A DNA stretch of 63,217 nucleotides, counting the filler, from Trichodelitschia bisporula (Eukaryota), in NCBI GenBank assembly GCA_010356995.1. It is 13 parts of 11 records of this genome, joined end to end, with 100 filler letters (N's around TTAATTAATTAA, not from the genome) between each part and the next. Parts side by side here need not be neighbours in the genome. Positions count along the whole stretch, not along the records: positions 32,030 to 47,621 come from ML996699.1; 12 more parts are not named here. One strand, written 5' to 3'. The translations under genes were made by a program, and so were the position numbers. The notes below the pieces were generated by a model. It worked only from the letters and a program-made list of their open reading frames with translations, had not been told where the DNA came from and ran no database searches. This document shows, piece by piece, positions 27,056 to 61,794 of the stretch; the first letter of the stretch is position 1; each line of letters starts with the position of its first letter.

Positions 27056-28298
27056 GCGGGCTCGTCAACGCGCGCAACAGCGTGTGTAACTGGAAGGGCA
27101 GAGGCGGCATTGCGACCCCCGACGGCAAGCGCGACCGCTGGCACGTCGACGAAGCCGGCGGACTAGTCGACAGCCTGCAGCCCGGCGCGCAGAGCAGCGG
27201 GTGGATCAAGCGCGTCGTCGACCTCGTCCGGAAGCAGCTGGCCGACGGCGAGGAGTGGGGGATCGAATGCATCAACTCCGCGCTGGTGGAGCAGATCGCG
27301 CGCACGCTACCCGTTATCGCTGAGGACGGCGAAAGGAAGGGCCTGGAGAAGTTCGTGGTTGATACGCTGCGCACCTAGGCGGGGCGCAAGTGGGGGGGCG
27401 CGCGTGTGGTAAGGCTGGTGGAGCGCATCGTTAAGCGCCTCGTCTGGCAGTGGTATCAGGACTTGTGCGTGCGGCCCCGTCAGCGCCCGCTGCCTGCGTA
27501 CACGCGCCCCCAACTGCCGACTAGCCTTGCTGCTCCGCCCGCGCCTACCGTGCTGCCGTTCCACACCTTCACCGCCCCAATGTCCGCCGCGCAAGTCCGG
27601 TCTATCTCGCGGCGCAAGTCCGGTCTTTCTCGCAGCGCAACGGTCTGCGCATCTCAACCTCCACGCTCAGATCCCTCTGGCTCCCACCGACCGTGCACCG
27701 CCCGCCCCCGCCCCCCGCCCCACACCTCAACGTCGGCTACATGAGCAGCGATTTCAATAACCACCCGTTAGCGCACCTCATGCAATCTGACTTCGGCCTG
27801 CACGACCCGACCCGCGTACGCGCGTTCTGCTATGCGACGACCGCGAGCGACGGCTCCGTGCACCGCGCGCGGATCGAGCGCGAGGCGCCCGTATTCCGCG
27901 ACGCGACGCTCTGGTCCGTCGAGCAGCTCGTCGCGCAGATCGTGGCCGACGGTATCCACATCCTCGTCAACCTAGACAGATACAGGCGGGTCGCGCGCAA
28001 CGAAGTCTTCGCGGCGCGCCCGGCGCCGACTCAAATGTCCTTCATGGGCTTCGCCGGCACGCTAGGGGCGGAGTGGTGCGATTACCTGCTGGCTAATGAA
28101 ACGGCGGTTCCGCCCTCCATGCTGCAGCCGTAGCGAGAGAATGTAGGTGTTAGAGATCTTGCGGAGGATGGGTATTTTGGGGGGGTGGGGAGTGGGTGTA
28201 TGGGGAGAACGTGGTTTATTGCAAGGAGACGTTTTTTTGTCGTGATCATGCGCAGAGTGCGCCGGATGCGGGGGGGCAGCAGGTGGGGTGGGAGGAGG
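27056..28298 (+). pseudogene. Partial second copy of OGT (corresponds to ~15961-17178)
   Basis: Collinear with the OGT gene; TGG>TAG at 27376 and 28131; ~23-bp tandem duplication at ~27590-27635 shifts frame; starts exactly at the LTR end. Confidence 0.93.
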
Positions 28299-28489: not shown

Positions 28490-30599
28490 TTAGCTGATGG
28501 TGTAACGTTGCGGAGTAGCTACGTACCATGGAGGCTCTGTAGTGATGTCGGCTCCTGAGCGCATATGGGCGAGCCACCCTTCTGACCCCTCTCGATCATG
28601 GTGACCGCTTGGAAGGGACGTTCGTCGTATCGAGACAACGTGCTCCATCAATTCGATCGCTTCGTCAACCCGGCCGTCCTTGAAGTATGCAGTGGCGAGT
28701 ACGTGCTGCGATGCAAGACGGCTTGGATCATCTTCCCGTAGCACTTTCGATTCGATTGATCAATGAAGACATCACAGCATCATAAGTTGGACCGAGGGTC
28801 TGTCCATGAACAAGTTGCTTTATTGTCAAAGAGATGGGGATCCCGAGTCTACTTGTACTCGAGCTCTGTGGCTGAACCTGGGTAAGGCTGAACACAGCCA
28901 CCGCTTTCCAACAAGATGATCCAAGCCGTTTATTATCGCAGCACGAACTCGCGAGTGCATACCTTGAAGATGGGCGAATAGGCGAGGCGATCGATCTATT
29001 TGAGCGCATCGTTGCAATCGAATCGAAAGTGCTATGCGAAGATCATTCAGACCGTCTATCATCGCAGCACTCACTCGCGAGGGCATATCTTGCAGACGGG
29101 CGAATAGGCGAGGCGATCAAGCTTTTCGCGCAAGTCGTTGCACTCATCCCCTTTCAACACATCTTCCCGTAGCACTTTCGATTCAATTGCAACGACTTGC
29201 GCGAAAAGCTTGATCGCCTCGCCTATTCGCCCGTCTGCAAGGTATGCGCTCACAAGTGCGTGCTCCGATACTAGACGGTCTGAATGATCTTCCCGTAGCA
29301 CTTTCGATCGGATTGCAGCAACGCGCTCGAATAGCTCGATCGCCTCGCCTATTCGCCCGTCTTCAAGGTATGCGCTCGCAAGTGCGTGCTGCGATGATAG
29401 ACGGTTTGAATGATCTTCCCGCAGCACTTTCGATTCAATTGCAACGACGCGCTCGAAAACCTCGATCGCCTCGCCTATTCGCCCGTCTGCAAGGTATGCC
29501 CTCGCGAGTTCGTGCTGCGATGCTAAACGGCTTCGATCATCTTCCCGTAGCACTTTCGATCGGATCGCATCGACTTGCGCGAGAAGCTTGATCGCCTCGC
29601 CTATTCGCCCGTCTTCAAGGTATGCACTCGCGAGTTGGTGCTGCGATCCTAGACGGCTTGGATCATCTTCCCGTAGCACTTTCGATTCGATTGCAACGAC
29701 GCGCTCGAATAGCTCGATCGCCTCGGCTATTCGCCCGTCGCGAGTGTATGCGCAGGCCAGGACATACTCCGAAGTAAGAGTTGCTGCATCATCTTCTCCG
29801 AAAATTTGCTTTCTTCATTTGAAAACTTGCTCAAGCCAGTATATACACTCCCGGAATCTCCCATCCCACATAAAGAAGTGCCCAAGCAGCTGGCATTGGG
29901 TGTAATGGCTGGCCAAGTCTTCGCCCTGAGCAGATTGAGCAACTTTTAACGCGTGGGGCAGGTATTCTCGACACATCGGCATGTTGTCGTAGTTGATTGC
30001 AGCATCTGGAAATACCCCCGCAAGGTGCTCCACCGCCTTCTTCCGCGCCTCCTCTTTCTCAAGGGGATGCTTGTCAAGCCAAATCTTGGTCGCCTTTTGC
30101 ACGAGTCTGTGCATATCGTACGTGTCCTCACTCCGTTCAATGAAGAAAGCGTATCCAAGAAGGGTACCAATAGCCCTCACCAGTTGTTCTTCGGGCGGCA
30201 CTAGGGGCAAGATCGACCGAGGTATTGCCTTTGGCTCGATGTAAGACACGAAGGCAAGGAGGTCGACAGCTGTTTGATCCGTCAGGCGAATTTGATCGAA
30301 CGACACAATCCATGTGTTTGCAATGGCGTTTGGAGCGCCCCGGGGTCGTGTGAGGTCGAGGAACTCGGCGCTCATGAGATTGGACAGATCTTGGTCGGTA
30401 TTCCTCAGGAGGTGCAAATATCTGGAGATCGACAGCTTGTTTCTGCTGAGGTAGGCTGCTGCTTGTGCGATCGCCAAAGGGAGGAATGCCAGTTCAGTCA
30501 AGAGCTCGTCCGTGATCGAAGGGTTGGAAAGCAAGGTTTTGTCAAGCAAGGAATTTGCCAAAAAGTCAAGCGAGTCTCTCTTGCTCATTTCACCCAGTG
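28490..30599 (-). pseudogene. NB-ARC-TPR NLR with ~8 conserved 42-aa (126-bp) TPRs; disrupted by nonsense codon, solo LTR and inversion; 5' end in spacer
   Basis: LAFLPLAIAQAAAYL and YDMHRLVQ motifs; repeats EDxxxRLxSxHxLAxAYLxDGRIGEAI...KVLR; in-frame TGA at 29815-29817. Confidence 0.9.
28757..29159. mobile_element. Solo LTR-A split by a 386-bp inversion (28757-29142); reconstructed TSD CATCT
   Basis: LTR body reversed at 28757-28913, ~1.8 TPR units reversed at 28914-29142, missing LTR tail CTCATCCCCTTTCAACA at 29143-29159 followed by CATCT; AGATG (rc of CATCT) at 28914. Confidence 0.9.
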
Positions 30600-32029: not shown

Positions 32030-32984
32030 GTATTCTTGCTATGGCCTGGCCCGTACAGACTTTCCGTGCCATGTGGATGCCGCCCCACTTAATCAAAGAG
32101 CCTGGGTACTGCAAGAAAGAGTGTTATCTCGCCGAACTCTTTATTTTACTGGCAACTGCACGTACTTTGAGTGTGGCGTTGGCGTATATTGCGAAGACCT
32201 TACCAAACACACAAAGTGAGGTTCCATTTGACACTTTTTTGGGGGTTTTTTTCCCTTGCAAGTTTGACTAATTAATTTTAGTGTTTTTGTCAGGTCGTTC
32301 TTTCTTGCGGACCCAGAATTCCCCCGACGGCTCCGTGTCTCGGGCTACGGTCGCAGCCTTGACTTCCTTCAGTACCTTTTTAAGAAATATGCACAGTCCG
32401 AACTCACCAAGGAATCGGATAGGAACATGGCAATTCGGAGCTTGATGGATCGAATGGGACGTGTCTTCGTCACTGAGCATAGATACGGTATCTTCGCATC
32501 GTTCCGATTTCGGCTCCTTCTCTGGCGACCTGACCCCGGAAACGACAATGGGCGACATGTTGTGGATAATCAGGAGTTGCCCTCGTGGTCTTGGATGACA
32601 TATTCCCGAATCCGTTTCTTCGACACCACATCTCCGGTTCTCCATGTTCCAACGGACGCGGCCCTTACATTTTCTCAGAATCCATGTGTATTGTTCATCC
32701 GGGTTAGAAGGCTCAAAGACTGCACAACGGAACACGAAGGACGAGAATGTTCTATTCTGGATGCGAAAGAGGAGCCTGTCGGGGTTGTGTGGTTTGATAC
32801 TATGACCAGGAGCAACATTTCTTTGCAGGAATGTGTCGTTGTTGGGAGGGAAGCCGGTGATTCTGAGATGACTTACATTTTGCTCGTGGAAGTTTTCTCG
32901 AAGAATTCATATAAAAGGGTTGGGGTCGGGAAGATCAAGGCGCGCTGTATATCCGAAAGATATTGGAACGGAGAGCTTTCCTGA
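32030..32984 (+). CDS. HET-domain (PF06985-type) protein, 3' portion
   Basis: PLNQRAWVLQERVLSRRTLYFTGNCTYFECG (HET C-terminal motif); intron ~32216-32293; KYAQSELTKESDRNMAIRSL, RLLLW, LPSWSW, YKRVGVG. Confidence 0.85.
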
Positions 32985-33018
32985 GCTGTCATGGTTGAGA
33001 TAATCTGAAGTGCGACAT

Positions 33019-33450
33019 TGTCACGGCTCACGGCCAAGCAATTTAGCTCCAGGCTGTCAGGGTACACTTGTCTGGTCACGCGGGCTCAATCCAAGTTGTG
33101 GGGAAACATGAAGTTATTGCTACAAGGAATGAAAGTCTATGTGGGCGCGCGCTTAATGTTGGCGTCGCGGTATCGTGAGTTCTTGGCGCCGGTTCGGACT
33201 CAGCCCGGACCGGGCCCGGATCCCCGTCGGCGCCTCTAGTCCATGTACTTACTGTCAAGGTTCTGGCACCTGCCCGGGCCCACGGGCCGCGGGAGTCCCG
33301 GCGGCCTAGCCCGGGCAGAAGGCTGGGGGTACGCAAAACCCATATGGTCGCGCGCGCCGGCGAAGCGAATTCCTCCTCCTTAAGTTTAGGAAACAACGTT
33401 TGCCTTGAGGCTACCGTTCACTTGCCTTGTGCACTCTGCCTACCGTGACA
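33019..33450. mobile_element. Probable LTR (432 bp), no TSD
   Basis: Perfect 8-bp terminal inverted repeat TGTCACGG...CCGTGACA; flanks GACAT/TTAGG; single copy in window. Confidence 0.5.
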
Positions 33451-33992
33451 TTAGGACCGGCTTAGAGCGCCGCTCCTTGGAGTGAACCGAGAGCCTTCAA
33501 CTCCACTTTCATATCACACTGTCAGATGTGGGACTGCAAGAGTTCAATGGTCTGAAACAACTTAGATTACTCGGTTGAGGAGAGTAAGTCCTCCGGAGGG
33601 CTTCCGGACTATCTACTCGAGGTGGGAGGTGCGGTGGCCCAAGCTCCCTTGCCAAGCGCGCGCGTGGGAGCCGCGTCCACATGCGCGGTGCACCACGTGC
33701 CAGGTGTCTTACCCTGACCGGATGTGAAGAGGTTCGCTGCTGCCTGGATATCGGGGTATAGAGGTGTTTTTGGCTGCCAGTGGTTGGGAGGATTCCCAGC
33801 AATTTGTCTTCGAATCTCCTCGTTTGCTGCATTTTTGAAGACGTGCTCTCGCAGTTGTGCTTTTTTTCTCCTCCTCTCAGCTTTGAGGGCGCTTTGATAT
33901 GCAAGATCGGCAAGGTTGTACTGCCGGTGAAGATTAGGGAAATCCTAGGCCGCACGCTTGATGATTAACCCAGCCTTGTAAATGGCGTCTTT

Positions 33993-34231
33993 TGTCATGA
34001 GCTAGCCCATCAGGGCCCGTAGGGGTGGCGTCCCTGGCGTGCCAAACGGACACGCGGGAAAGGACCCTGACAGGGTCCTGTTGCCTTGATGGATGTCTGG
34101 CTTGCAAACCTTTCGCGCGCGGCTGCAACCTATAAGCGCAGCCTCGCCGCTCTGTAGTCTTCTCTCTTCAATCGACCTCTCGGTTTCCCATACCGCGCTG
34201 TATTCATGATTCTCGTCGTTACCCCGTGACA
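33993..34231. mobile_element. Solo LTR (family D, 239 bp) inside the Captain, TSD TCTTT
   Basis: TGTCA...TGACA; removal restores the frame KARNVAKDAIYKAG. Confidence 0.85.
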
Positions 34232-34496
34232 TCTTTGGCGACATTCCTTGCCTTCAGGAGTGGAGCAAGAGAAGGTAGAGCCTGAACACTGGGCCCTAGA
34301 TGCCGTAGGACGAGATTGGATGCTTGGGCACGCGGGTTCCGGCTCGCGGTTTGGTGTGACAACAGCTCGATGGTCTCATCCTGCGGTTCATCGCCGGCAA
34401 AGCACGCCTGTATATCCGACTGGATGAAAGTATTGATATAGGCTTGAAATGCATGCGTTTGGCGGTGTCCCATAAGCTGGGAGAGCTGTTGCTCAG

Positions 34497-34637
34497 TGTT
34501 GAAATGAAGTGTGAACTTGACTGAGTTGCTTAATTGACTAGCAGTGGGAAGTGAGCTGGCTATATATGTCGCCAGGAGACGACTCTTGTCTCCTGGCTCC
34601 ACTCCAGCCACCCCAGGTTGCCGCCACAAATTCAACA
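34497..34637. mobile_element. Solo LTR (family B, 141 bp) inside the Captain, TSD CTCAG
   Basis: TGTTGAA...TTCAACA; second copy at 61704-61794; removal restores IGTEQQLSQLMGH. Confidence 0.9.
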
Positions 34638-34931
34638 CTCAGTTCCGATTTCTAGATATTATTAACGCGAATCATCACTTGTGAGGGTAGATACTAACTT
34701 TCAACCATCTCTCCTACACCGCGCCGAATCATGTAGGGTGTCGGAGTGACCCCGAAACCAGCCTCTGCCCCAAGACGTTGCATGTAGTGAAGAAATGAGG
34801 GCTATGAGAAGGGTTTCCTGCTCTCCATGTCCTTGCTGCCATTTTTAGCTTGCCGGAAGATTGGAATGCCATTCATTTCCTGCCGCCAGGGGAGGTCTAG
34901 CTTCGCAAGGTGATTTGGGATTGTAAGGTTT

Positions 34932-35139
34932 TGTCATGGTTGGCTCTTGACACCTACGTGAAGCCGCGCTAGGCAAGCGCGGCCCAAGAAGATGGAGCTG
35001 GAACAACATTGTCCCGCGACCCTCGTGCACATACAACCTGAGACTGCAAGCCCACACACACCTTCTCTCTTCATCGAAGTATTGTAGTTCATAGGCAATG
35101 CAAATAGGCAATTCACGTGCACTCGCTGGCCCAGTGACA
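34932..35139. mobile_element. Solo LTR (family C, 208 bp) inside the Captain, TSD GGTTT
   Basis: TGTCA...TGACA; removal restores IQNLTIPNHLAKLDLPW. Confidence 0.85.
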
Positions 35140-36685
35140 GGTTTTGAATGTCTTCATATGACTTGATCCCCGCTCCAAAGGCATCATTCCTTGAATGCTA
35201 GAACCAGCATGAGTATGACCGGGTCGAAGAGCAACTCTTTTGTCTCTGAGAGGATAAAGGTGAGGCTTGTACCATCGTTAGCAAGAGGCCATGTATTCGA
35301 CGGGTTCGATGACTTACGGCTTAGGTCTGTTCCTGTACCCTTAACGTACACAAGTTTGACCTTAAGGACCAGTTTCGGCCTTGTCTGTGACGCATCTCGG
35401 ATCAAAGAGATTTTGACATGCTCGTAGCATATCACTGGAGGCTGTTTGCGATCCTCTTCCTCAGGTCCACATCATGGTTCGCTTTCAGAAAAAGCCGGTG
35501 CCACCAATGCTGCCGGTCTTGTCCCCGTACCCATCGTTACCAGCAGCACTAAGGCGAGCTGAACTCGTATTCTCTCGTTGGTGTACGGCAGCCTGTCGAT
35601 CTTCCAAAGATGGTGGATGAGGACCGCCATATCAGCAAAGTTCAGGACGGGCTTAGGCTCCTGCATCTTGGAGAGTGAACCCTGAGCCTTCAAGTTCACT
35701 TTTATGTACTATGACTTATTAGTTCTAATCTTCTAAGGTGGATTCCTTACTGATGTCACTTGCCGATGGTCGGCGGGCCCCCAGATATTGCGGTGTTCCA
35801 ATTGTCTCTGGGCGCTCTTCCACCATGCGAGGTAGCTCATGAGGGATCTAACTTTTTTGATCTTTGGATGCGTGTCTAGCATCCATTGAAAAAAAATTAT
35901 AACCATTTCAGGACCAGCCTTCGCCATAGCTTCAGTTGGATCACTCAAGTCGCCAACGTGCCAGTTTTGCGCGGTTGCACAGAACTTCTTCTAAATGCAC
36001 GAGATGCGAAAGAGGTTTTGCTGTACGGACCTTGCGAAATCCGTTGTTGTGCTGTGGCGCCCAGCTTTCAAGTCGGAGAGAAGCCGACTGTAGTCCGTTG
36101 CCGTCGTCTTTTCGATTGATGGGACAAAAAAGCTGGCTTCGATCTACCGAGCGGTCCCCAGAGAAGACACATGTGTGAGGAAAACTTAGACGATGGCACG
36201 GTTGGAGGCTAAGATGCGCAGATTTGCAAAAACTCGAAACTTGTAGTTGGGATTCATTGAGCGGTTAACATTGCGAAATGTATTGGAGGAGACTCCGTGG
36301 CCGGGGTTGTGTAGAAATGCGCTAATCCAAATACGGCCATTTCTCAACTCTTCTCAACACGGCCGTAGGTGAAAGTCGACAACCTGTGACCGTATGTACC
36401 TTACTATGGTCCTTCTAGACTTATATTGTTGGTCACTTTTGCGTCGATTGGGACAATTGTTTCCTTGAATGGGTTTCAGAAGGAGAAACGGCCATATCCA
36501 AAGCCTTTGACGAACCGGGTTGTGGCGCGCTTGCCCGACGTTGCAAAATGTTGGGCGGGAAAGGAGCGTTGGCGAGGCTGAGTGCGTTGGGCGGGGAAGG
36601 TGTATAAATCTATCTCATCACCACCTCACATCTGCAGCACCAAGGGCTATCCGTAGCCCATTACGAACGCATTACAATTATCACC

Positions 36686-37107
36686 ATGTTCCACAGCTGG
36701 TCCGTCCTCGCCCTGTGGGCACTCCAGCTCGCACCCACCACCGCGGTGCTCGCAACAGGCGACATCGCCAACCTGGACAACGGCATTGCCTCCACCCTCC
36801 CCTCCACCCCTCACCTCGAGCCCGGCATCCATTCCTTCGATCCCGTAAGCTGAGCACGGCTATTGTCTCAACTACTAACACTCGCCAGCCCATCCTCAGC
36901 CGCCCAACCTCCACCACCACCACCCCTCCCTCACGCGTCATGCCCCGCCCCAAGCAGTCCCTTCATCTACATCGGCGCAAAAAGTACATCTCCTCCGGCT
37001 TGACCCGAAACGTTCTCATCGTCCTCGGCGTACTCTTCCTACTAGCCGTGATCGCAAAACTCATCCGCGGACGAAACAAACTCCTCACAAACCCGTTCGG
37101 GGACTAG
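36686..37107 (+). CDS. Small signal-peptide plus C-terminal TM protein (~125 aa, 2 exons)
   Basis: TATAAA at 36603; MFHSWSVLALWALQLA; intron 36845-36888 keeps frame; TM VLIVLGVLFLLAVIA. Confidence 0.6.
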
Positions 37108-37189
37108 GACGGGGGCGGTGTGGTGCACGGGTAGCAAACCATGTACATATCATTCATTCCTAATGAATTCACGACCCTTATTCTCCATT

Positions 37190-37971
37190 TTACACCTTTG
37201 GCTTCGCAGCCAAAATCCTGCCCGCCGTCCCCAGCAACCCACTACTCGTAATCGCCTTGACGGGCCTCGTATACCCCTCAGGCAGTCTCTCCTCCCCCAC
37301 CCAAGCCCTAACATCCGCCGGCGCCGCCGCAACCACGCCACTCGCGCCTTCCTTCCCCATTGCGAGCAGCAATAGCGCCGCTTCGCCGTATGCCAGCGTA
37401 GTCGCTTGCACGCCCAGCGCCTTCTGCCCCGCAGCCTTGGACTCCGCTTCGCGGCGCGCGCGACTGCGGCCCAGGGATTCGATGGTGATGGACCCGTTGG
37501 CGGCGTCCGCGATGAGCGCGTCCACGAGCTTAGGCTGGACGTTATGATTATCGCCCTGTGCGAAGTCGAGACGCGTGAGGCTGGCGTCGTGCTCGATCTT
37601 GTCGTGCGTGTTCAGGTCGGCGAGGTCGATGGCGCTGGCGCCGGGGGGTGCGACTTGGGATACGCCTGCGGAGAGGGTGCTGGCTAGGGTGGGGTCAATG
37701 TTGTAGACGGATTGGATGGCGGTGCTGAAGGTGGCGGCGGTTATGTTTTTGCCATCATGGGGCCTGGGGGGTTAGGTGGGTTGTAGGGGGAGGGGGGGTT
37801 GACGTACAGGTAGCCGTGGTTGGCGAGGGCGTTGAGGGCGGGGCACGGGCTGCGGGAGTCGCTAGTGGGGTTGGCGCGGATGAAGGGGTGGTCTGCTGGA
37901 GGGACGACTGGCGAGGCGAGGGTGCTTGCCAGGAGGCTGGCGGCTAGGCTGAGGCGTGTGGAGATATGCAT
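37190..37971 (-). CDS. Short-type unspecific peroxygenase / chloroperoxidase-like heme-thiolate peroxidase
   Basis: Signal peptide; RSPCPALNALANHGYL|PHDG (intron 37807-37764); IEHDASLTR. Confidence 0.93.
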
Positions 37972-40900
37972 TGTTGGGGCTGGCGATCGTGGGCGTGATG
38001 CTCATTCTCGAAAGCCATTACTGCAGGATATATAGCCAGCGACGGTCTGGACCGCGACTTGCTGACCAAAACGTCATCGTCGCAATGTCCAAGCTTTCCG
38101 TAATGTGGTGCTATTGTAAACGCAGGCCAGATTGGGGGATCGGCGGAGATAGAGTGCTCGTCTCGGCCCGCCCAATGTCCAACCCCGGAGACGGGCCCGA
38201 AGGGGAAGTGAGCCGCTTTTGGAAATTTGAAAGTGATCTGAGCGATGAGACTGACGTCAATGACTTTTTGGAATTCAGATCAAGTGGTCCATTGTGAGTT
38301 GGAGGCCTGGGTGGTTATTCCGATTTTCTGGCTTCCACGGATATTGGATCCTGGTCGACCACGGTTGTGTTTCCCGCATTGTGGGAGTGTGGGGAAATGA
38401 GAGGATTAATAGAATAATGTACCTGACAAATGATTAGGACCAGAACCATTGTGCTTACTTACCCGCCGGACATGAGTCCCTCGTTAATCGGCCACCCGAC
38501 CAGCTCCGCGTCGGTCGGGTACAGTGGGGGCTAGATATGTGGCACCTACGCTCACGGCCACCGCAGTATTACCATTTTACTCACATCGTCGCTTGCCTCC
38601 AGCCTCATGTCTTCTTCAACCCATCATTACAGCTCCATCCGCACGTGCTACTGTGGGTTAGTGGCACAACATGCAGAAGAATTTTCCGATTGATTCGTGT
38701 AAGGAGAATGCGCAAGGCTGAAACTGCGAGAATCATGTGCTATATCTTCGCGAAGGAAGAATTATAATTCATATGGCGCAAAAGCAGGGGACCATAGTTC
38801 AACTGACTGCCTGATAGATGCGCGTTTCGATGCCAAAATGCCTTGTAGATAATCGAACTCAAAATGGCCAGGTGGGATGCCAGTCTAGAGACCACAATCT
38901 CTGTGGATTGAGTTTTCAGCCCCGGGGCGCTCCTTGACAGCAATTCAAATCCTAGGTCAGTGACGTCGAATGCAGGTTCGTCAAATTCCAGTCAAGGCTA
39001 AGGGCTTCCTGGAGTCGAGACTGGGCTCTGACATTGGGTAACTGATGCGATTGTCATGCTCCAAGCACCGTCTACCGGATGGGGAATCCTCACGGCATGC
39101 GGGTTGATTGATATCGGATGAGCCGATTTTCCACAGGGAACCATTTTAGCCACGGACGGTCCGTCAAGTCTTCGGAGGTGCAACCGTTTACAGTCGGTCC
39201 TCTGGTGGGAATCCGATGCTGCTATCGGAGGGCATTTTTGCATCCGGAGAGCCGACATGGTTCTCCCCCTGTGCAATGTGCGGTATCCGGATGTGTATGT
39301 TGCCGACATTTTCTCAGCCGCATCGGCAGGGTCGACATCCCGACAACGATCGGAGTCATCCTAGATCTGAACTAAATTATCAGCACAGAACCACAAACAG
39401 CAACCGCCCAGTTCAGCTTTCATCCCTCTCACCTCCAGAAACGCCAATTCCAGAACATCGCCATTACCGGCGATTCCGGATAACTAGCTTATTCTAGTCC
39501 GAAGACTCAGCGCCAGAAGAACATAACGCTCAGTGTCTATCGCCAAATCCCGTCGTCAAACTGTCTTCAGCACTCGCCCCGTAGGAGGTTCAGCACATAT
39601 CGTGACCTTAGTGGCGCATCCAGACCATTTTCGACGTCGCTGGACGTTGTCGGGGCCTAACCCACCCCAGCCTCATGCCCCGCCCTGCGGCAGTGCAAGC
39701 GCCACAACCACACGCGCCACATCTTCGTCCCATCAGCTGCCCCTCACCACCGCTAACTGGACCTCCTGTATCCGGCCCTTCAGCCCCACTTGCTCGAACC
39801 CCCAATCCCACGTCCGGCGTCCCTCGCATTCTCTCATGGCATTCCATTAGCGTGTCACTGAGATGCCCTGCCCCGCATCGCGCCTCCGGAGCGTGGTACG
39901 TCATTGGCCGGCGCGAAATCACGAACTGTGTCTGAGAGGGTCTGGTTGGGGGATATTTTGGGCGTGCACGTTGGCGCAGGGACAGAGACATGCGTGGGCT
40001 TTACGGTAGAGGGGGTGAGGAGAAGTGGTGCCATGACGTCGGTTGCTTGGGCCGGTGCTGGGACGGAGGATTGGATCGCGTTGAATCTTGGACGGGTACG
40101 GCTGAGGATCGGAATGGGCTTGGGAGCTGATGGGTCAAGGGGTTGGAGGCCTGTTGCAGCTGGGCGGAGGATTTGTGCGGGGGACTAGGCTGATGATCTG
40201 GTGCACTGCCGCGTTTAGGAAAGCGGGTAGGGCAGTTGTACCTCGGATGACATACGCTACTTATGGTGATCACGTAGGGTAGACGAGAGATAAGTTTTCG
40301 CATCTCCAATTTTAGACGCTCAATTGACCAATACTAGTATACAAAATACCAGAAACTTTGCAGCGTACGAAAGCAGTGAAACCACATCCCTGGCAGTAGA
40401 GCATCAGGGGTATCCCGAGAACCGACTGCATCTCTCTAGAACGAAAGAACAATCCCAACGCCATCGCTATGCATGGAAGCATAATAAACCAGGAACGAGA
40501 AAGCAGAAGTGACAAGGACCGCGGCAGCATAGTGATACAGAGAAACGGAATGACAGAAACAGAAAACAGAAAACAGAAAACAACCCCCAAAGCCTGCAGT
40601 GAAGCAACGCCATGCCAAAGCTCAATGATTGAAACCACGAGGGAAAGGACAGTGCGGAGGAGGAACCGAAGCGTCGCGAGGTTTGTCGGCTCATGCTGAA
40701 TGTTGGCGCGGCTCCGATTGCCGAAGGAGTAGGATGCCGGTGTCGATCTCGAAAGTGTGGCGCAAGAGCCAAGTTGGTAGAAGAACTGATGATCGATGAT
40801 CGACAACAGGTTCGCGGCTTAATTGTATCCACCACGGCCAGCATCGTCCTCCTCCTCTTCGTCTTGGAATAGTCGGAAGGACATGATGATCTTGGAGGTG

Positions 40901-43042
40901 AAGGACATGAACGAGAACATTTTGAAGGGCTGAATTTGTGTTGATAGGGAGTGATCGGTAATAGTTATGGGGAGATTGTGATCGATGGTGATTGAGAGAT
41001 GGAATTGCTTTCTCGAAGGGACTGGAGAACTGATGCTTCTTGCAAGAGGAGTCGAAGAAGAATTGAGATTTTATATAGAAGAAGAGACTGAAGGAAAGGT
41101 TGGAATGGGGAACTAGGCTGAAGTGATGATCTGGGTATTGAGGGACAGCCAGTAGAACTGCGGCCTCCTTATATGCCGACTTGCCAAAACTGGAGATGCA
41201 TACAGACTACTCTTCTACCGTTAACCCAAGAGCGTGAGTTCGGTGAGCATCGACAACGCAAATACTGCGCCACGCCTGGCAGGGCAGCTCCTCTGGCATA
41301 CCATAAGTTGAGGCTGGCCGACGATGAGGACGATGAGTGGCAGGCACGCAGGCAACAGGCGGCCGCAGGGGTGGGTCGTTGCGGCTCCAAACATCGCGAC
41401 AAGCACGACCAGGCCGGCGGTGCAGCATATGACGAAAAGGGTGTAAGCCAGTGAACGGGGTTGCCGAAGAGATCGGTATTTTAGCATGGGCTAAGGGTTA
41501 CGACGGTTGAAGGCCGGGGATCTGGTTGCGGGAGCGGTGGCTGTAGCCGTATGCGCCCCACCCGCCCCACGCGCGAGGATCTCCCACGCTTGCATACGAC
41601 CAGCGATAGGGACGCTATGAACCTACGCAGGCTGACGCCTCGTAAGGCTGCTGCTGCGCGGGGGCATGAGGCAGTAAACCGGATCCGCGAAAAGTTCGCT
41701 CGGGGGTCGTGACGAGTGAGCATGGCGGGAGTACTAGGTCAGATTGCCGACCGCTGCTCACAAACCCTTTCCGAGATGCGGCTGTACGGTAGCAACCATA
41801 TTTCTGGAACGTCTCACGAACACTGTATTGCAAGGAGCCAGAGCAAGGACAGAATGAGGTGAGAGGCCAAGCTCCGTAAGGGGAATGACCTGTGGCTTGC
41901 TGGTTGCTATTCTTAGGGAGGGGTTGAAGAGATACCGTAGAGCGCAAGCAAATGGCATTTGCGAGTAGCGCGCTTTGCGGTATTCTCCGAGCTTCCAGTA
42001 GCAAGTGAAGGACAGGCAAAGCCAATGAGGGGTTACCATATGCGGACATCCCTAGTGGTTAATGGGTTTGGAGTCAATGCCAAACAAGTGTTCGAAGTAG
42101 ATGGGGCGAAAAGTCGCGATGCACCGTCAACCGTCATGAGCCCACTCCGACGGCCTCATGAGTCAATGGCAAGGCAGTTCTGACAGGGAGCCAATTGAAG
42201 CCTTGATTATGTACGTCAAAAACTTAGCAGGACAATTAGCGACGCGTTATAAACGATGAGTGGGGGTTCGCGATGCGATGGTATCATGGAGATGTTGGAC
42301 GTTGTCGAGTGAGGTTTCTCACCATCTGGCGGTCACAAAAGCCACCCGTAAGCCACATGTGGCTGATCACGTTGTGGCTGTTTTTACAAAGCCATCTCAA
42401 AGAGGATAAATTGATGAGAATAGATGTGCCCCACTTTCCCAGAAGAGGTGGAATATTGATTCATTTTCCGCTTGAACCTCGTGAAACGCACCAAAATTGC
42501 CTTGATATGTCCAAGGGTTCACGACCAAGTGCCACCTAGTGCCCCAGCTTGCAGACGCCAGACGCGACCCCAGTCGTGCCCAGTCTCCTTCTCACCGCAA
42601 AATCAACCCCGCCCGCGAATCACTTCTCACAATTCATCCCTGGCATGCGGAAAGCAGTCGCTCCATGCACCTCTCCCCCCCCCCCTCCCCCCTTCCCCCG
42701 CCGGACCGTTCGCTTCATCGCTTGTGCCAGCCCGCACATGCCCTCTCCCGTTTCTTCTCATCCCGCTACTCTCTTCCTTTCTCACCCGATTCTCAGACCG
42801 AGGGGGCAGTGCTTCCCGCTGTTTCCTCATTCTTCCAACACTCCGACAAGTTGTCATTCGACAAACTCACATCACCACCAACCCCGCCTACTCCGATCCA
42901 CCGTCTCCCCTTCGAGTCAATGCAGATGTTCGAACCTGCATCTCAATGTCACTTTCGCCGTCAGCGCGTCTGAAGACAGGCTCGCTGAGACGAATCCCCA
43001 GAGTCAAGCGTGTGCCAGCTGCGGCCAGCGGCGGTCGGCAAC

Positions 43043-43707
43043 ATGGATAGCATTCAGACCTGGCTTAGCCTCCGCCAGTGCAAATTCTGCGAAGCCATTG
43101 ACTTCAACGCGCTGAACGTCTCTTCCAACTGTACGTGTGCCACTATCTTTTTACTTTCCCCATTCTTTCCCCTTACCCACCTCCATCTCACCTCCCCCCA
43201 AAACGGGTCACCGTTTTCTTGGCCCTTTTTGCTCAACATATTCCACCTTTAGACGAGAAGCAAGCCACCGTCGGGAGCCTCAGCGAAATACGACGCCTTT
43301 CTCCGTATTGTTCCTTCTGCTGCCTCATCGCAAGCCTTACCGGCGCCGCCTTCGTCCATTCACGGACATGGCAATTCGCCTCGCCGGACGACCCAGACGA
43401 GCTTTACGACTGCGCTGTCTTTGGCCTCTTTGAAGATGCCGAGCTTCCTTTGCGCCATGAGAAGCGTGTCGACCTCCATCCGCTGACCCTTGGCCTCCGT
43501 ACCGGCAAAGTGTTATGGCTGCATACCTTCAGCCCGTCCGCCTTCACCCTCTTCATGGTCGGCAAGGGCTTCTGGGTGAAGGCTAGTGCCGATGGCTCCG
43601 AATTCCAAACCGGCCGCATCGATCCCGAGTTCCTGCGCCAGTTCTCTTACGACAGCTCCGATGACGAGGACGTAGCGTTCCTTGAGCAGAAATGGCACCG
43701 ACCTTGA
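43043..43707 (+). pseudogene. Possible truncated N-terminal (pre-HET, Cys-motif) region of a HET-type protein
   Basis: CKFCEAIDFNAL; putative intron 43131-43252; GSLSEIRRLSPYCSFCCLI; GRIDPEFLRQ; no recognisable HET core follows. Confidence 0.35.
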
Positions 43708-45300
43708 CCGCTTGACAGTGATACGACGCCGCCATCACGAGCCGACGATTTACTGCAAATAGTATGTCCTCAGAAACCATCTCCGCTCTGGACAGTCACG
43801 CCATGCGCCAGGAGCTGCGTCTGTCACCACACTGCTCTGGCTAACGAAGTTTCGACAGTCAATTTATTTAGACCTTTCAACGGGACAGCGTCCCATTCTA
43901 TCGGCTGAGCCGAGGAAACAGGTGTTTCCCGAGACCCCGCCACAACTCCTCTTAATCGATCTTGTTTCGATCTGCACCTCAGGTTCGATGGATCTGCGAT
44001 TGCGCCAGGCCGACCATCAACGGCGACTATGGCCCTCACGAAATTCATGACACATGCGACACGATGACGACAATTATGCGCTATGCTCCGATGAATCTCC
44101 CCTCACCAATATCGCGCAATCTGATATGCGAAATGTCGCTCTCGTCTCATTGGAATTGATAGACCGATAGCCGTCTCATGGACGAAAATCGCACCTCAAC
44201 ATCACTTCGCGAAGCATGCCCAAGCTCTATACATCGACATGGATGGTTATCTGCTGCAGCCACATCGGTTTCTTGTCGGCTGGCACGCTACTATGAGCAT
44301 GATGTTACGATGGCGCATTGCTCTTCTTTTGTACTTGCCGCCTTGGAGAGTGGCTCCCGACTTAGCAGAGGAGGAGCATGTTGGAGGTTCGAGAAGAAAA
44401 AAATGGTCTTGGGTCTCGTTATTCTTATAGCTTTAATGCATATCTGTTCTGAATGACCCCCAAGGCTTTCGGCATGACCAGGAACTCTGTGAAAATTTGC
44501 TGCGCCCAACAGAGAGTCGAGACTGGAGAGGCGAGACGTCCTCGCTTACCTACGCCTTAGACCAATCACGTAGCTGGAAAGAGTTCAGCCTGGATGACGC
44601 AAGCCCAGAGGGCAAATGAAGAGGCGGGGAGGCGGGGAGGTGTACCAACGTAGAGGTCAGCGTTGCTTTGCTTCTACAACGTACGTTCACCATTTGGTGC
44701 TCTTTGTCCGTAAAGCTTCCTCCAATGCAGTAAATCCTCGAAGAAGTTCAGGATGTGTGCAGCTTTCCTGTGTTCACCGCAACCCTATTCCATCTTGATT
44801 GCGCTCAGATGGTTAAGCGTTTCCATGCCTGGCCGTCGGGGCATTCGAGTTCAATGCTCCAACGATGGTAATTTCGCTGCCTGTTAGGCGACGATAAAAT
44901 AGGCGCTTCCAAGGCCAGTATCCTGCAGAGAGGCTAGATCTAGATCCGCCGGCCGCCAATCATTACTGCGACAAAGGTTGAGATGACGACGCAGCGCGTT
45001 TTGAACACGCACGCTGTACTCTTGTGGCCTTCTGGACCTTCTTCACACGGCTTTGTGATACGCAAGCCATGATATTTGCTATGATCAGGGGAAGGAAACC
45101 TTCACATGCAATTATTTGAGCTCTCTCACTGGTCCGGTGCTTTGCGGAAGTGGCTGTGCACATCAAAGTGGCGAGAGTGGCTGAGTCTTGAGCCGACCCA
45201 GTCCCAGCCTTAAGTCGACGTCAATCGCCGCGGCTTCGTCTCAGCTGAACTTTCACCAGCTGCCCCCATTCTTCCACCGCCAACAAAGCCTTCTCCGTGA

Positions 45301-47621
45301 ATGGAGACCCAACAGTACGTTCCGGATCGCAAACCTGTGGGACGCAACGCAAGTCAAGATCCGCGCACCGCTTCGTCCGCCCGCAACACCCTAGACTCGC
45401 AGACAGCTTCCTCAGCTAGCAGCTTCGCCTACATGCCTACTCCGGACGCGTCGCCGAAGGCGGCGCTCACCAACATCGTTGACAATATCGACTTCGGAGA
45501 TGAGCAGAAGACGCTGTTGGATGAGTTGGACAAATTGCGCGAGTTTGGCGTCGATCGGTACATTCAGCTGCCGCAGCTATGCGTCGTGGGCGATCAGAGC
45601 TCCGGGAAGAGCAGCGTGCTCGAAGCTCTGAGCGAGCTGCCTTTCCCTAGGAGCTCCATCAGATGCACGCGCTTCGCGACTCAGATCAAGCTCCGGCACT
45701 CGCCCGAGACGAGCATGTCGGTCAAGATCATCCCGGGACCGGACAGAGACTCTCGCGAGCGTGCGAGACTGGCAGCCTTCCCCTCGAAGTTCGCGGATTC
45801 GGTCTCTTTCCAGGAAATCATGAACATGGCGACACAGGCTATCTGCGGCGACAACCCGCGTTTCTGCTATCGCGACATTTTCAGCATCGAAATGAGTGGC
45901 CCGTCGAAGCCGCATCTGACCATCGTCGATCTCCCCGGCCTCATCCAAGCTGCCAATATCCACCAGTCCCAGGCGGATGTGGACGCTATTCAGGAGCTGG
46001 CTTACGATTACATGCGCAACGAGCGCACTATTGTTCTTGCAATCGTTTCCGCCGCCACCGATCTGGAGCTCCAACCCGTGCTCTCACAACGCGCCCGCCA
46101 GTTCGACCCGACAGGTGCGCGCACGCTGGGTATCATTACCAAGCCCGACAAGACCGAGACACCGGAGCGCGAGGCTCTGTTTCTGGAGCTGGCGCGCAAC
46201 CACAATGTCCGCTTCAAGCTGGGGTGGCATGTGCTGCGTAATCGCGCGCCGGACGAAATGCACTTCACCGCCGAGGAGCGCAAGCGACAAGAGATGCAGT
46301 TCTTCTCGCCACCGTCGAACTGGGCCTCTGTGGGAGCTGAGAACCTTGGTGTAGAGACGCTGAGACAGAAACTCAGCCGTGAGCTCATCAAGCACGTTCT
46401 CCATGAAATGCCGGCGGTACAGCGCGAGATCCGTGAGCAGCTGGATGAGACGAGGCGCCAGTTGGAACGCCTTGGTGACCGCAAGGATACTCCGGAAGAG
46501 ATGCGGGACCAACTGCGCGAGCTGTGCGAGAAGTCTCAGGCGCTTACCCGGACTGCTATGGAGGGACAGTATGTCGATTTATACGGGCCCACATTCTTCA
46601 ACCCTCCGTCAGAGAGCTTTGCTGAGCCGATGCGCAAGCTACGCGCGCGGATCGTGACCCAGAACGAGAAGTTTGCGGAGGAGATGGCTGTTTTTGGACA
46701 CTTGGTGGAGATCATCGAGGAGGCTCCCATGCCGACTACTCCCGGAGCGAACGGGCAGCAGCACTTGCCGCCGCCGACACCTGTGGTTAACTCCCGGCAC
46801 CCAATGAAGCTGTCGCGCGCTGACTTCATCCGCCACCACGTAGAGCCGCTGCTGAACGCCAGCCCCGGTCTCGAACTGATGATGGATCGCAACCCTCTGC
46901 TCGTCTACACTCTCTTCCGCAACTACTCCGAGAATTGGCCCACTATTGCGAAGCGGCATCTTGAGGAAGTGCAAGCAATTTGCTCCGACTTCTTGCAGGA
47001 AGTCATCGACTTCATCTGGCCCGAGGACATGCGCGCCCGCGCCTGGATGGCCTTCGTCGAAGAGAAAATGGAAGAACGCCTCAAAGAAGCTACCAAAGAA
47101 GCCGACAAGCTCTTCAAAGACCGAACCCGCGCCTCCAAGCCCTACGACCCAGAACACACCAAGCGCGTCGCCGAATGGATCGCAGCACGCAACAAATCCA
47201 AGCCCAACGGCGCAGCCTGGCTCTCCGAATTCGCACCCGACGTCTTCCTTCAGAAAATGCTGGTCTACTACGATCTCACCCAGCGCACGTTCGTCAGTAA
47301 CATCATCGTCCAGGTCGTCGAGCGCCACCTCGTCGACGACCTAGACCGCATCTTCAACATCACGCGCGTCGTCGAGCTGGACGACGAGACCGTCATCGAA
47401 ATCGCGGCTGAGGACGACGCCCTCCGCCACCACCGCCTGGAGCTGCGCAACACGCGCCGCGTCCTTGAGGCCGGTGAGCGTATTTGTCGCCGTTACATGT
47501 CGAAGCGGGACATGTCCCTCGTAAGCGCCTTTCCCCCTTTCATCCCTCCCCATTAAACCCACCCACTAACCCCCCTAGGACGAGATCTCCAAACCCGTCC
47601 GCAAGCCCCTCACCTCCGCCG
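45301..47621 (+). CDS. Mx/dynamin-family GTPase with GED region; 3' end in spacer
   Basis: LPQLCVVGDQSSGKSSVLE, CTRFATQI, LTIVDLPGLI, GIITKPD, GWHVLRNR, NIIVQVVERHL; intron 47521-47578. Confidence 0.92.
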
Positions 47622-58242: not shown

Positions 58243-59060
58243 AAATGTGGCGCTGGATTCGGCGGCAAGACGGAGGAAAGTATTGGCTAGCAAGGATGAC
58301 AATGCATAAGCTAGTCCAGATTGAGCACTATCCTCACTGAGCTAAGGATATGGACCCAGGTCAGAGATAAGACGTTTTCGAATTCAAATCTAGCCGGCCA
58401 AGCATAGTGCAGTATTTTTGCGAGGATGATATGATGAGGTAATCCGTATTAAAGTTCTGCCGATGTCGGTGTCCTAATCGGGACCAACTTGGACATAGGT
58501 CTGAAAATACACCAGTCCCCGTCTGCTCACTGAAGTTAAGCTCCGAACCAGTTGACTAGTAGTTGCGTGGGTGGCCAGCAGCGAATCCCAACTGCTGTAT
58601 GTTTTTACCTTTTGCCTTTTTGCATCGTGAATGGGCGTTAGCGGCTATCCGAGGGACCGACGAAGAGGCCATCTAGACTCATCGTGGCCCTTTTGCCTGG
58701 GCGTCCTACGAACAGAGTCAGCCGGGACCTTTGTGGGTGGCCCTTGAGCATCAAGCAAGGCAAGACCTTTTTATCATTATTCAGATTACATTTCATTCCG
58801 TTGCCTAGGTATCAAAGCAAATACGACTCCCAACCCCTGAAAGAAACCGTTCTCTATGCTCGAAATGTTGGCGGAAGTGCTCAAAGAATTGTGTGAGAAA
58901 AGATTGATTGCCCAGCTTGTTGCCTTCTCTAGTTTACAGAATGAACAGTATATATCCGTGNNNNNNNNNNNNNNNNNNNNNNNNNNNNNNNNNNNNNNNN
59001 NNNNTTAATTAATTAANNNNNNNNNNNNNNNNNNNNNNNNNNNNNNNNNNNNNNNNNNNN

Positions 59061-61703: not shown

Positions 61704-61794
61704 TGTTGAATTTGTGGTGGCAACCTGGGGTGGCTGGAGTGGAGCCAGGAGACAGGGGTCGTCTCCCGGCGATGTATATAGTCAGCTCACTTCC
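61704..61794. mobile_element. LTR family B copy, truncated by spacer
   Basis: Matches the reverse complement of 34547-34637. Confidence 0.88.

Follow-up and report, generated by a model that had tools for sequence, protein, structure and literature searches.

A degraded, still transcribed DUF3435 tyrosine recombinase pseudogene in Trichodelitschia bisporula

Results

A captain-type recombinase remnant with its catalytic motifs in order

We analyzed a stretch of 63,217 nucleotides from the Trichodelitschia bisporula assembly GCA_010356995.1 (the window), which consists of 14 contigs chained by N44 + 12 nt + N44 linkers. As this chaining is artificial, adjacency between contigs is without genomic meaning, and linked sequence is limited to the 15.6-kb contig that carries the gene described here. 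The gene and its active-site motifs are located as follows.

33747..36172, minus strand: DUF3435 (captain-type) tyrosine recombinase pseudogene, a homology-supported coding remnant on contig 32030-47621
35514..35528, minus strand: TGTRP motif with the first catalytic Arg, placed by homologue alignment
34718..34735, minus strand: YMIRRG motif, the YxxR form of the HxxR box, with the second Arg, placed by homologue alignment
34435..34476, minus strand: LMGH...FQAYI, with the His and the nucleophile Tyr, placed by homologue alignment

After excision of three insertions and three introns, the coding remnant of this pseudogene amounts to approximately 597 codons in a single frame, and the conceptual 597-codon frame aligns to homologues without gaps at any of the six junctions. 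Five minus-strand pieces match the Pfam DUF3435 profile (PF11917) in collinear order, at profile positions 3-47, 48-114, 131-163, 215-272 and 319-366. The piece at 34219-34638 reaches 30.0 bits, above the PF11917 gathering score of 25.8; the remaining four of the five score 16-21 bits each, singly below the gathering score, and keep the order of the profile. A word-indexed protein search for longer targets, using a 175-aa read-through piece, returned 0 matches, and an exhaustive phmmer search against 1.84 billion representatives then found relatives, with 91 matches for the remnant. PF11917 was found in 14 of the 16 phmmer matches scanned, and among these 14 are all 12 scanned homologues of at least 591 aa (131-366 bits); the 1738-aa protein P0004 has no PF11917. 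Using tblastn, the homologue P0013 matched the insertion-excised locus as one collinear set covering residues 64-553 (E 3.8e-47); comparison before and after excision showed that it is the removal of the insertions that improves the match into this single set. The nearest full-length relatives are no more than 22-28% identical to the remnant.

The TGTRP motif, the VKG lysine, YMIRRG, LMGH and QAY fall in the same columns as in 10 homologues, in the order expected of a tyrosine recombinase. In other words, the catalytic set that marks a Starship tyrosine recombinase, namely R, K, H/Y-x-x-R, H and Y in order (motif definition taken from PMC11162782), is present throughout. According to PMC11162782, the YxxR variant typifies clades 1 and 3 of the Starship recombinases; the motif hints that the remnant may belong to one of these clades. 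Together, profile matches, homologues and motif order support the reading of the gene as a degraded DUF3435 tyrosine recombinase, from the family that supplies the captains of Starships. The first-pass annotation, which had called this identity and the motif order, and had proposed the PF11917 profile check that we ran, is borne out on these points.

Three introns are still spliced

Contigs from four public sequencing runs of one organism were compared to the locus: two of DNA (X1 and X2) and two of RNA from a second sample (X3 and X4). X3 and X4 were taken as RNA because only their contigs carry GT..AG joints. These joints define three introns, while only two had been annotated before.

35709..35750, minus strand: intron 1, 42 nt, GTAAGG..CATAG; 42-nt joint, CT..AC ends, confined to X3 and X4
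35266..35317, minus strand: intron 2, 52 nt, GTAAGT..GCTAAC..AG; 52-nt joint in X3 and X4 only, absent from the first-pass annotation
34652..34698, minus strand: intron 3, 47 nt, GTTAGT..TCTAG; 47-nt joint in X3 and X4 only, with gap-free alignment to homologues
36264..36368, unstranded: stretch of approximately 105 bp between the transcripts of the pseudogene and its divergent neighbour, without RNA contigs; DNA contigs are continuous

Intron 3 lies 3' of "RRGVGEMVE" and not directly 3' of RRG. The RNA contigs include insertions 1 and 3 described below. They stop at 36263 and 36253 and resume at 36369 and 36375, a weak hint, from contigs of one study, of how closely the two transcripts approach each other. 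The depth of the RNA contigs was 140 and 13.5 for the pseudogene versus 172 and 21.3 for the divergent neighbour, a measure that is unfit for ranking expression. The pseudogene and its right flank lie together on one single-copy contig (34611-38500, depth 215.5); the genes of the right flank encode a small membrane protein and a Peroxidase_2 protein. Throughout the locus, the X1 and X2 DNA contigs and the spliced X3 and X4 contigs show 0 differing letters, where the DNA runs may stem from the sample behind the assembly and are thus not independent proof of the stops.

The reference annotation of T. bisporula holds a 110-aa "hypothetical protein" (KAF2398696.1) that is fully tiled by exact matches to the locus, two pieces of which lie inside insertion 3. 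KAF2398696.1 is a chimeric gene model of the pseudogene locus.

Three TG..CA insertions interrupt the gene

Three inserted blocks were identified within the coding remnant, each with TG..CA ends, an exact 5-bp target duplication and terminal inverted repeats of 5-7 nt.

33993-34231, unstranded: insertion 1, 239 bp, TGTCATG..GTGACA, solo-LTR-like; duplication TCTTT at 33988-33992 and 34232-34236
34497-34637, unstranded: insertion 2, 141 bp, TGTTGAA..TTCAACA, high-copy; duplication CTCAG at 34492-34496 and 34638-34642
34932-35139, unstranded: insertion 3, 208 bp, TGTCATG..GTGACA, solo-LTR-like; duplication GGTTT at 34927-34931 and 35140-35144

TG..CA ends with a 5-bp duplication are not rare by themselves. 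A scan of 33400-36200 yielded six such pairs, so that three extra pairs arose by chance within 2.8 kb; these three cut conserved coding sequence. The three insertions stand out from the chance pairs because of their inverted repeats, because their excision restores a gap-free alignment to 10 full-length homologues at every junction and, for the 141-bp element, because of the ends of its other copies. Indeed, many other genomic copies of insertion 2 end exactly at 34497 and 34637, as seen from loose contig ends; its summed depth is 95,763 versus 215.5 for the single-copy contig, and a second copy in the window (61794..61704) is 92% identical and shares an end. This element could equally be a solo LTR or a MITE. 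For insertions 1 and 3, no further copy of at least 90% identity was found in the contigs of the sequencing runs, and their LTR label is therefore drawn from the ends and duplications only. The two have a 17-nt stretch in common, a length reached in 1 of 200 shuffles; other pairs of inserted blocks are at chance level. Solo LTRs of fungal LTR retrotransposons and MITEs likewise have TG..CA ends, short inverted repeats and 5-bp duplications, but here the window yielded no full-length parent element whose LTRs match, and many copies are seen for the 141-bp element only. What had been described as three LTRs flanked by target site duplications stands as three TG..CA insertions with 5-bp duplications that may be solo LTRs. 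A Copia-type reverse transcriptase occurs elsewhere in the window, at 48962-51247.

Lesions remain after all insertions and introns are removed

35991..35993, minus strand: premature TAG at a Trp column conserved in the homologues (frame and alignment)
35472..35474, minus strand: premature TGA in the DUF3435 domain, falling between positions 47 and 48 of the profile (Pfam and frame)
34802..34804, minus strand: premature TAG (frame after removals)
33945..33947, minus strand: premature TAG (frame after removals)
35190..35265, minus strand: out-of-frame stretch of approximately 75 nt in which the homologous frame differs from the spliced frame (alignment)

A 1-nt indel at the intron-2 junction and a second, compensating one near 35190 bound the out-of-frame stretch, and the spliced frame meets a stop inside this stretch. 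No in-frame ATG is present for the recombinase frame; an ATG at 36170-36172 lies in another frame, so it can be put forward only as a putative ancestral start. The uninterrupted open reading frame that characterizes an active captain is therefore lacking. The earlier proposal that six fragments join into one protein does not survive these lesions: four stops, the frameshift pair, the lack of an in-frame ATG and a 3' end replaced by repeat DNA all remain.

The remnant tests negative for RIP (TpA/ApT 0.64, substrate index 1.42, composite -0.78, GC 0.50), with values the same as those of flanking genes. In later usage, "derelict" denotes RIP-inactivated copies of Starships. The gene is degraded, but the word, which the first-pass annotation had applied to the element, does not hold in the RIP-inactivated sense.

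The low-coordinate end is built of repeats and a second-copy fragment

33516..33718, unstranded: repeat-derived block replacing the natural 3' end of the gene; variant contig depth 688, loose end at 33516
33451..33512, minus strand: 63-nt paralogous piece of the exon-2 start, with 79% identity to 35644-35705
33019..33450, unstranded: 432-bp TG..CA block without target duplication (GACAT versus TTAGG); an X2 contig covers 32928-33422

Homology to full-length relatives stops near 33747-33765 in tblastn. The gene had been thought to reach down to 33462; instead, 33462-33735 is non-coding, consisting of repeat DNA and the second-copy fragment. Two candidates in this region were rejected: 33462-33512 as a C-terminal exon of the gene, as it duplicates the start of exon 2, and the 432-bp block as a fourth insertion into the gene, as it has no duplication and travels with a paralogue of the neighbouring HET gene. 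This block was assigned to a duplicated HET unit because in a paralogous copy it directly adjoins the HET 3' end.

A separately duplicated unit holds the adjacent HET gene

32031..32984, plus strand: HET-domain gene of which the contig end leaves only the 3' part; intron 32216-32281, multi-copy family

Downstream of the recombinase remnant only 1.7 kb of contig follow, and the contig stops within this HET gene. A direct Pfam test of the fragment gave no HET match even at E 5, and its identity comes from full-length homologues, which carry PF06985; the best of these, from T. bisporula, is 89% identical, and tblastn with this paralogue against the fragment gave 83% over 318 aa. The gene encodes a HET-only protein, and contigs of the runs show its intron joint and a raised depth, which when summed is approximately 8-19 times that of the single-copy pseudogene. 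HET-paralogous contigs end at 33097 or 33422 and do not reach the recombinase. Given the raised depth and these contig ends, the HET gene was placed in a separately duplicated unit, and rearranged repeats lie between it and the recombinase remnant. T. bisporula contains several other degraded DUF3435 fragments; a look-up of 10 more phmmer matches gave no additional members from this species. The scaffold lengths of the three closest T. bisporula HET paralogues differ from those of all five DUF3435 fragment models of the species.

Among Starship-associated gene types, the HET-only gene is the only one on the 15.6 kb of linked sequence. No DUF3723, ferric reductase (FRE) or patatin (PLP) gene was found in ORFs of at least 90 aa at 36.3-47.6 kb or of at least 130 aa elsewhere, and the NACHT and TPR pieces of the window sit on other, unlinked contigs. 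There are no tRNA genes on the recombinase contig, Rfam matches over the window are limited to 5S rRNA and snR80, both on other contigs, and no conspicuous repeats were found upstream of the gene at 36100-36700.

Discussion

The locus is very probably a single-copy pseudogene, inactivated by several lesions, that derives from a DUF3435 tyrosine recombinase. To this enzyme family belong the captains, which carry out excision and integration of the giant transposons called Starships. The ancestral protein would have been approximately 570-600 aa long, with a core-binding region followed by the catalytic R-K-Y(H)xxR-H-Y set and, by analogy with its family, would have used the conserved tyrosine to cut and rejoin DNA. 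Once it had lost its function, the gene very probably took up three TG..CA insertions, each with a 5-bp duplication, accumulated four premature stops and a compensating pair of 1-nt indels, lost its in-frame start and had its 3' end replaced by repeat DNA. This decay proceeded by ordinary mutation and transposon insertion rather than by RIP. The promoter and the three introns still work, yielding a spliced transcript that is non-coding, contains two of the insertions and probably misled gene prediction into the 110-aa chimeric "hypothetical protein".

Among known systems, the nearest are the Starship captains, tyrosine recombinases of Pezizomycotina with DUF3435 (PF11917), of which HhpA of Hephaestus is the one with functional validation (PMC11162782). 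The locus resembles Starship captains in Pfam family, domain order, active-site positions, the YxxR variant and a length of approximately 600 aa, but differs from them in its four stops, indels, three insertions and truncated 3' end, and in its identity of 22-28%. The tree of Starship recombinases has 11 families. According to the starfish survey, 559 elements with boundaries stand against 10,212 solo Starship recombinases, many of which may be pseudogenes in the view of its authors (PMC11162782). As a recombinase without a definable element, the locus fits the class of solo or pseudogenized recombinases that this survey describes, with the difference that here the decay is resolved to single bases and both the transcript and its splicing are seen. 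The degraded or "Derelict" regions of Macrophomina phaseolina (PMC9156397) share the idea that Starships decay in place, leaving remnants. As described there, those regions hold at least three conserved cargo genes (DUF3723, FRE, PLP, NLR) without DUF3435, and our locus is the reverse, a DUF3435 remnant without that cargo set. A full-text literature search found no paper mentioning Trichodelitschia together with Starship.

The main alternative takes the gene for a captain whose derelict Starship starts near 36.2-36.5 kb and runs to lower coordinates, with the HET gene, and possibly genes on other contigs of the window, as its cargo. A Starship is defined with the captain as its first gene, within approximately 2 kb (up to 7 kb) of the upstream boundary, with direct or terminal inverted repeats at its flanks and an empty site in another genome, and in known Starships this boundary is usually at most 2 kb from the start of captain transcription (PMC11162782). 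Consistent with this, the captain-type gene is oriented towards lower coordinates, there is room for an upstream boundary between approximately 36264 and 36685, and other degraded DUF3435 fragments occur in the species. The next gene downstream is the HET-domain gene, and PMC9156397 lists HET, and the NACHT domains of NLRs, among conserved Starship-associated genes; it defines Starship-like regions by DUF3435 co-localized with DUF3723, FRE, PLP and/or NLR genes. However, the HET gene here is HET-only and multi-copy, in a duplicated unit that ends before the recombinase, and the scaffolds of its paralogues do not pair with the DUF3435 fragment models, which argues against its being cargo; for the NLR, OGT-copy, LPMO and adhesin contigs, which had also been proposed as cargo, linkage is baseless in an artificially chained window. 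The characteristic DUF3723, FRE and patatin genes were not among the ORFs scanned, neither a tRNA nor a 5S target adjoins the gene, and the transcripts of the pseudogene and its divergent neighbour are only approximately 105 bp apart. Most Starship recombinases, moreover, lack a definable element in the survey cited above. We therefore consider this alternative unlikely, and the inference of a Starship with cargo is not supported for this locus.

A bolder variant, for which we see very little chance, would see in the locus what decay has left of the 5' end of an old Starship, whose captain, dead for long enough to have gathered three transposon insertions, is kept as a spliced non-coding RNA, sharing a bidirectional promoter of approximately 105 bp with a host gene; if true, a promoter of a mobile element would have been absorbed into host gene regulation. 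It is likewise highly improbable that the transcript has been kept for a role at the RNA level, as a regulatory non-coding RNA or a source of small RNAs against related elements, or for a promoter shared with the neighbour. The three introns are still spliced, contig depths are of the same order as those of the neighbour, and the transcripts start approximately 105 bp apart, but contig depth cannot rank expression, and residual transcription is common in young or promoter-sharing pseudogenes. That the gene is intact and functional, its lesions being assembly or sequencing artefacts, can practically be dismissed even though it keeps all catalytic motifs and gives rise to a correctly spliced transcript, as contigs from two DNA and two RNA runs cover every lesion without a differing letter and the reference annotation also runs through insertion 3.

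Returning to the pseudogene reading, the locus is most likely either what is left of an old insertion of Starship type or a solo recombinase copy. It is an ordinary relic, with neither an element boundary nor cargo demonstrable on its 15.6-kb contig. Its value is mostly that of a correction and a calibration point, and it opens no long-standing question. A DUF3435 match alone is insufficient to establish a Starship, and neighbouring contigs of a chained window should not be read as cargo. An annotated "hypothetical protein" of T. bisporula is exposed as a chimera of a transcribed recombinase pseudogene and an inserted repeat, and the locus documents the decay of a captain-type gene without RIP.

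Identity of the decayed gene

The locus is a new, dead member of the well-known DUF3435 recombinase family. The window consists of 14 contigs chained by linkers of N44, 12 A/T bases and N44, plus one N184 gap, and the recombinase lies on the 15.6-kb contig 32030-47621. When the 12 minus-strand, stop-to-stop ORFs at 33.5-36.3 kb were scanned with Pfam, 5 matched DUF3435 (PF11917) and none convincingly matched any other family. The matched profile positions (3-47, 48-114, 131-163, 215-272 and 319-366) are collinear with the DNA, and one piece exceeds the gathering score (30.0 versus 25.8 bits); the family named in the first-pass annotation, which had proposed this profile check, is thus right. 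A phmmer search of 1.84 billion representative proteins with a 320-aa read-through of 35184-36143 (stops as X) gave 91 matches at E <= 0.001, 8 of them at <= 1e-10. PF11917 was present in 14 of the 16 matches scanned, including all 12 proteins of at least 591 aa; the exceptions were P0003 (110 aa) and P0004 (1738 aa). In an alignment with 10 homologues, to which the pseudogene is 22.3-28.4% identical across 456-569 positions, TGTRP, VKG, YMIRRG, LMGH and QAY fall on catalytic columns, so that the recombinase motifs reported earlier hold despite the decay. At the sequence level, the initial observation was good and mostly stands, subject to the corrections given below.

Three insertions interrupt the gene

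Against the unmodified window, tblastn with the homologues gave collinear matches that were broken into pieces. Three insertions lie within the gene, each bounded by TG..CA and flanked by an exact 5-bp duplication:

33993-34231: insertion 1, 239 bp, TGTCATG..GTGACA, duplication TCTTT
34497-34637: insertion 2, 141 bp, TGTTGAA..TTCAACA, duplication CTCAG
34932-35139: insertion 3, 208 bp, TGTCATG..GTGACA, duplication GGTTT

The pattern itself is not rare: a control scan of 33400-36200, looking for TG..CA pairs spaced 100-500 bp and flanked by identical 5-mers, found 6, the other 3 of which would remove conserved coding sequence. We excised each insertion together with one copy of its duplication, upon which residues 64-553 of the homologue P0013 formed one collinear set (E 3.8e-47, tblastn) and residues 52-556 of P0018 a single segment. 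Aligned by MAFFT to 10 full-length homologues, the sequence showed no gap at any of the three junctions. The 141-bp element also occurs a second time in the window (61794..61704, 92% identical, same ...TTCAACA end). Because the homologue matches fuse on excision, the junctions are gap-free and the 141-bp element has further copies, we consider the insertions real.

The 141-bp element clearly belongs to a high-copy family. The 216-nt bin holding most of it has a summed depth, which does not equal copy number, of 95,763 (X1) and 152,689 (X2), about 350-440 times the single-copy level; the flanking single-copy contig has a depth of 215.5 and 434.3, respectively. Assembly contigs break at the element, with heterogeneous loose ends exactly at 34497 and 34637. 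It is also abundant among RNA contigs and contains an internal GGAGAC..GTCTCC hairpin. Insertions 1 and 3 are covered by single-copy contigs only, hence no other copy at least 90% identical exists in the contigs, and beyond their termini they share just a 17-nt stretch. Most likely, insertions 1 and 3 are solo LTRs, and the 141-bp element a solo LTR or MITE. In the initial reading as three LTRs with target-site duplications, the insertions and their duplications stand, and the LTR label is a probable one for insertions 1 and 3. A Copia-type polyprotein fragment (RVT_2 and retroviral SH3-like domain; 48962-51247, minus strand) fills an entire small contig, and its family is a possible source of the solo-LTR-like insertions.

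Introns and transcription

The stretch is covered by four public runs, all from one organism. X1 and X2 look like DNA runs. X3 and X4 derive from a second sample and were guessed by the tool to be RNA; canonical splice joints occur in these two only. Such joints define three minus-strand introns:

34652-34698, minus strand: intron, 47 nt
35266-35317, minus strand: intron, 52 nt, GTAAGT..GCTAAC..AG
35709-35750, minus strand: intron, 42 nt

The first-pass annotation had two introns and overlooked the 52-nt one; the 47-nt intron begins past ...RRGVGEMVE rather than straight after RRG. Joints in X3 and X4 also mark an intron of the neighbouring HET gene (32216-32281) and those of two right-hand genes. 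RNA contigs pass unspliced through insertion 3 (X3 record 19) and insertion 1 (X3 record 18), and agree with the window at every letter of the four stop codons listed below. Those of the pseudogene end at 36263 and 36253 and those of its right neighbour start at 36369 and 36375, a weak hint, from contigs of one study, that the two transcripts diverge with about 105 bp between them; 36264-36368 may be a compact bidirectional promoter. The neighbour (36686-37107, intron 36845-36888) is predicted to encode a small protein, either membrane-bound or bearing a signal peptide.

Remaining lesions and mode of decay

Removal of the three insertions and three introns leaves a single frame of 597 codons, from 36143 to 33611, with four premature stops:

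35991-35993, minus strand: TAG, aligned with a conserved Trp
35472-35474, minus strand: TGA
34802-34804, minus strand: TAG
33945-33947, minus strand: TAG

From the intron-2 junction to about 35190, the homologous residues (...LTFILSETKELLFDPVILMLVLAFK) lie off the spliced frame, which runs into a stop, implying two compensating 1-nt indels. The frame has no in-frame ATG, and the ATG at 36170-36172, in another frame, could be the start only on the assumption of a third indel. Contrary to what had been proposed, the fragments thus do not join into one open protein. Homology to full-length relatives fades out near 33747-33765. Past that point come a repeat (33516-33718; a variant contig has depth 688, and a loose end lies at 33516), 63 nt that duplicate the beginning of exon 2 (33451-33512, 79% identical to 35644-35705) and a 432-bp TG..CA block without flanking duplication, so the lowest 270 bp, previously taken as coding, are not. 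The duplicate is direct and lies 2.19 kb downstream of the original between two repeat blocks; it may be left over from a second copy, tandem or nested, or be filler DNA.

In the pseudogene the RIP indices come out negative (TpA/ApT 0.64, substrate index 1.42, composite -0.78, GC 0.50) and cannot be told apart from those of flanking genes. The gene decayed by ordinary mutation together with transposon insertion.

Starship context

The locus had been read as the captain of a giant transposon with HET cargo. By published criteria (PMC11162782, the starfish survey of Starships, and PMC9156397, on Macrophomina phaseolina), the captain comes first among the genes of an element, its start usually lying no more than 2 kb from the upstream boundary. 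Boundaries are called by comparison with an empty site, and repeats, direct or inverted, accompany them. 'Starship-like' regions, as defined in PMC9156397, require co-localised DUF3723, FRE, PLP or NLR genes. The survey counts 559 elements with boundaries versus 10,212 solo recombinases, and many pseudogenes are to be expected according to its authors.

Among 27 long ORFs picked on contig 32030-47621 and 87 ORFs of other contigs, neither DUF3723 nor a ferric reductase or patatin was found; the locus has no tRNA or 5S gene beside it, and nothing is conspicuously repeated upstream. On the right, the gene for the small predicted membrane protein is followed by a Peroxidase_2 gene, and a dynamin-family GTPase lies farther along. 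The Peroxidase_2 gene (heme-thiolate peroxidase or peroxygenase family; 37190-38001, minus strand) has a 44-nt intron (37763-37806) confirmed by RNA contigs.

On its left, the recombinase adjoins the 3' portion of a HET-only gene. Pfam found no match in the fragment itself; its homologues carry PF06985, the closest being a T. bisporula paralogue (89% identical). Summed depth in the HET region is 1,765-4,118 versus 215.5 for the pseudogene (X1), with many short variant contigs. As depth is raised and contigs of HET paralogues end at 33097 or 33422, the HET unit has been duplicated independently of the recombinase. Scaffolds of three HET paralogues (1,403,583, 219,148 and 321,643 bp) and those of DUF3435 fragments (943,630, 1,579,935, 1,003,334, 118,086 and 1,060,084 bp) have none in common. 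The HET gene (32030-33100; the contig ends inside it) belongs to a multi-copy family with paralogues of at least 90% nucleotide identity, and has very high RNA contig depth.

The NLR, OGT-copy, LPMO and adhesin contigs were also proposed as cargo, for which there is no basis: these contigs are artificially chained, and the NACHT, TPR, GT41 and AA9 pieces are unlinked to the recombinase. The results favour neither a definable element nor the proposed cargo, and the giant transposon is unsupported. Features on the other contigs are:

13164-17774, plus strand: long TPR and GT41 (O-GlcNAc-transferase-like) gene, first contig
27525-28130, plus strand: partial second GT41 copy, separate small contig
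22674-24206, 59277-60419 and 29074-29814, all minus strand: pieces of NLR-type genes with NACHT/NPHP3_N and TPR domains, each on its own small contig, typical for multi-copy families fragmenting short-read assemblies
58487-58603, plus strand: 5S rRNA gene (Rfam gathering-level match), contig unlinked to the recombinase
10362-10512, plus strand: snR80-like H/ACA snoRNA (Rfam gathering-level match), contig unlinked to the recombinase

Annotation and other DUF3435 copies in T. bisporula

The best phmmer match, P0003, is KAF2398696.1, a 110-aa hypothetical protein of Trichodelitschia bisporula. All 110 residues are covered by exact matches to the locus, including two pieces within insertion 3. The window therefore belongs to that species or to a nearly identical genome, and the annotated protein is a chimera modelled on the transcript of the pseudogene; the model spans 34805-35666 (minus strand), combining pseudogene exons with two pieces of the 208-bp insertion. 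KAF2398696.1 should be re-annotated as a pseudogene. Looking up 18 matches by cluster turned up 4 more clusters of T. bisporula proteins; these are uniformly short (79-126 aa) and lie on four or five other scaffolds. These sequences suggest that T. bisporula harbors several degraded DUF3435 copies, and an intact copy may also be present.
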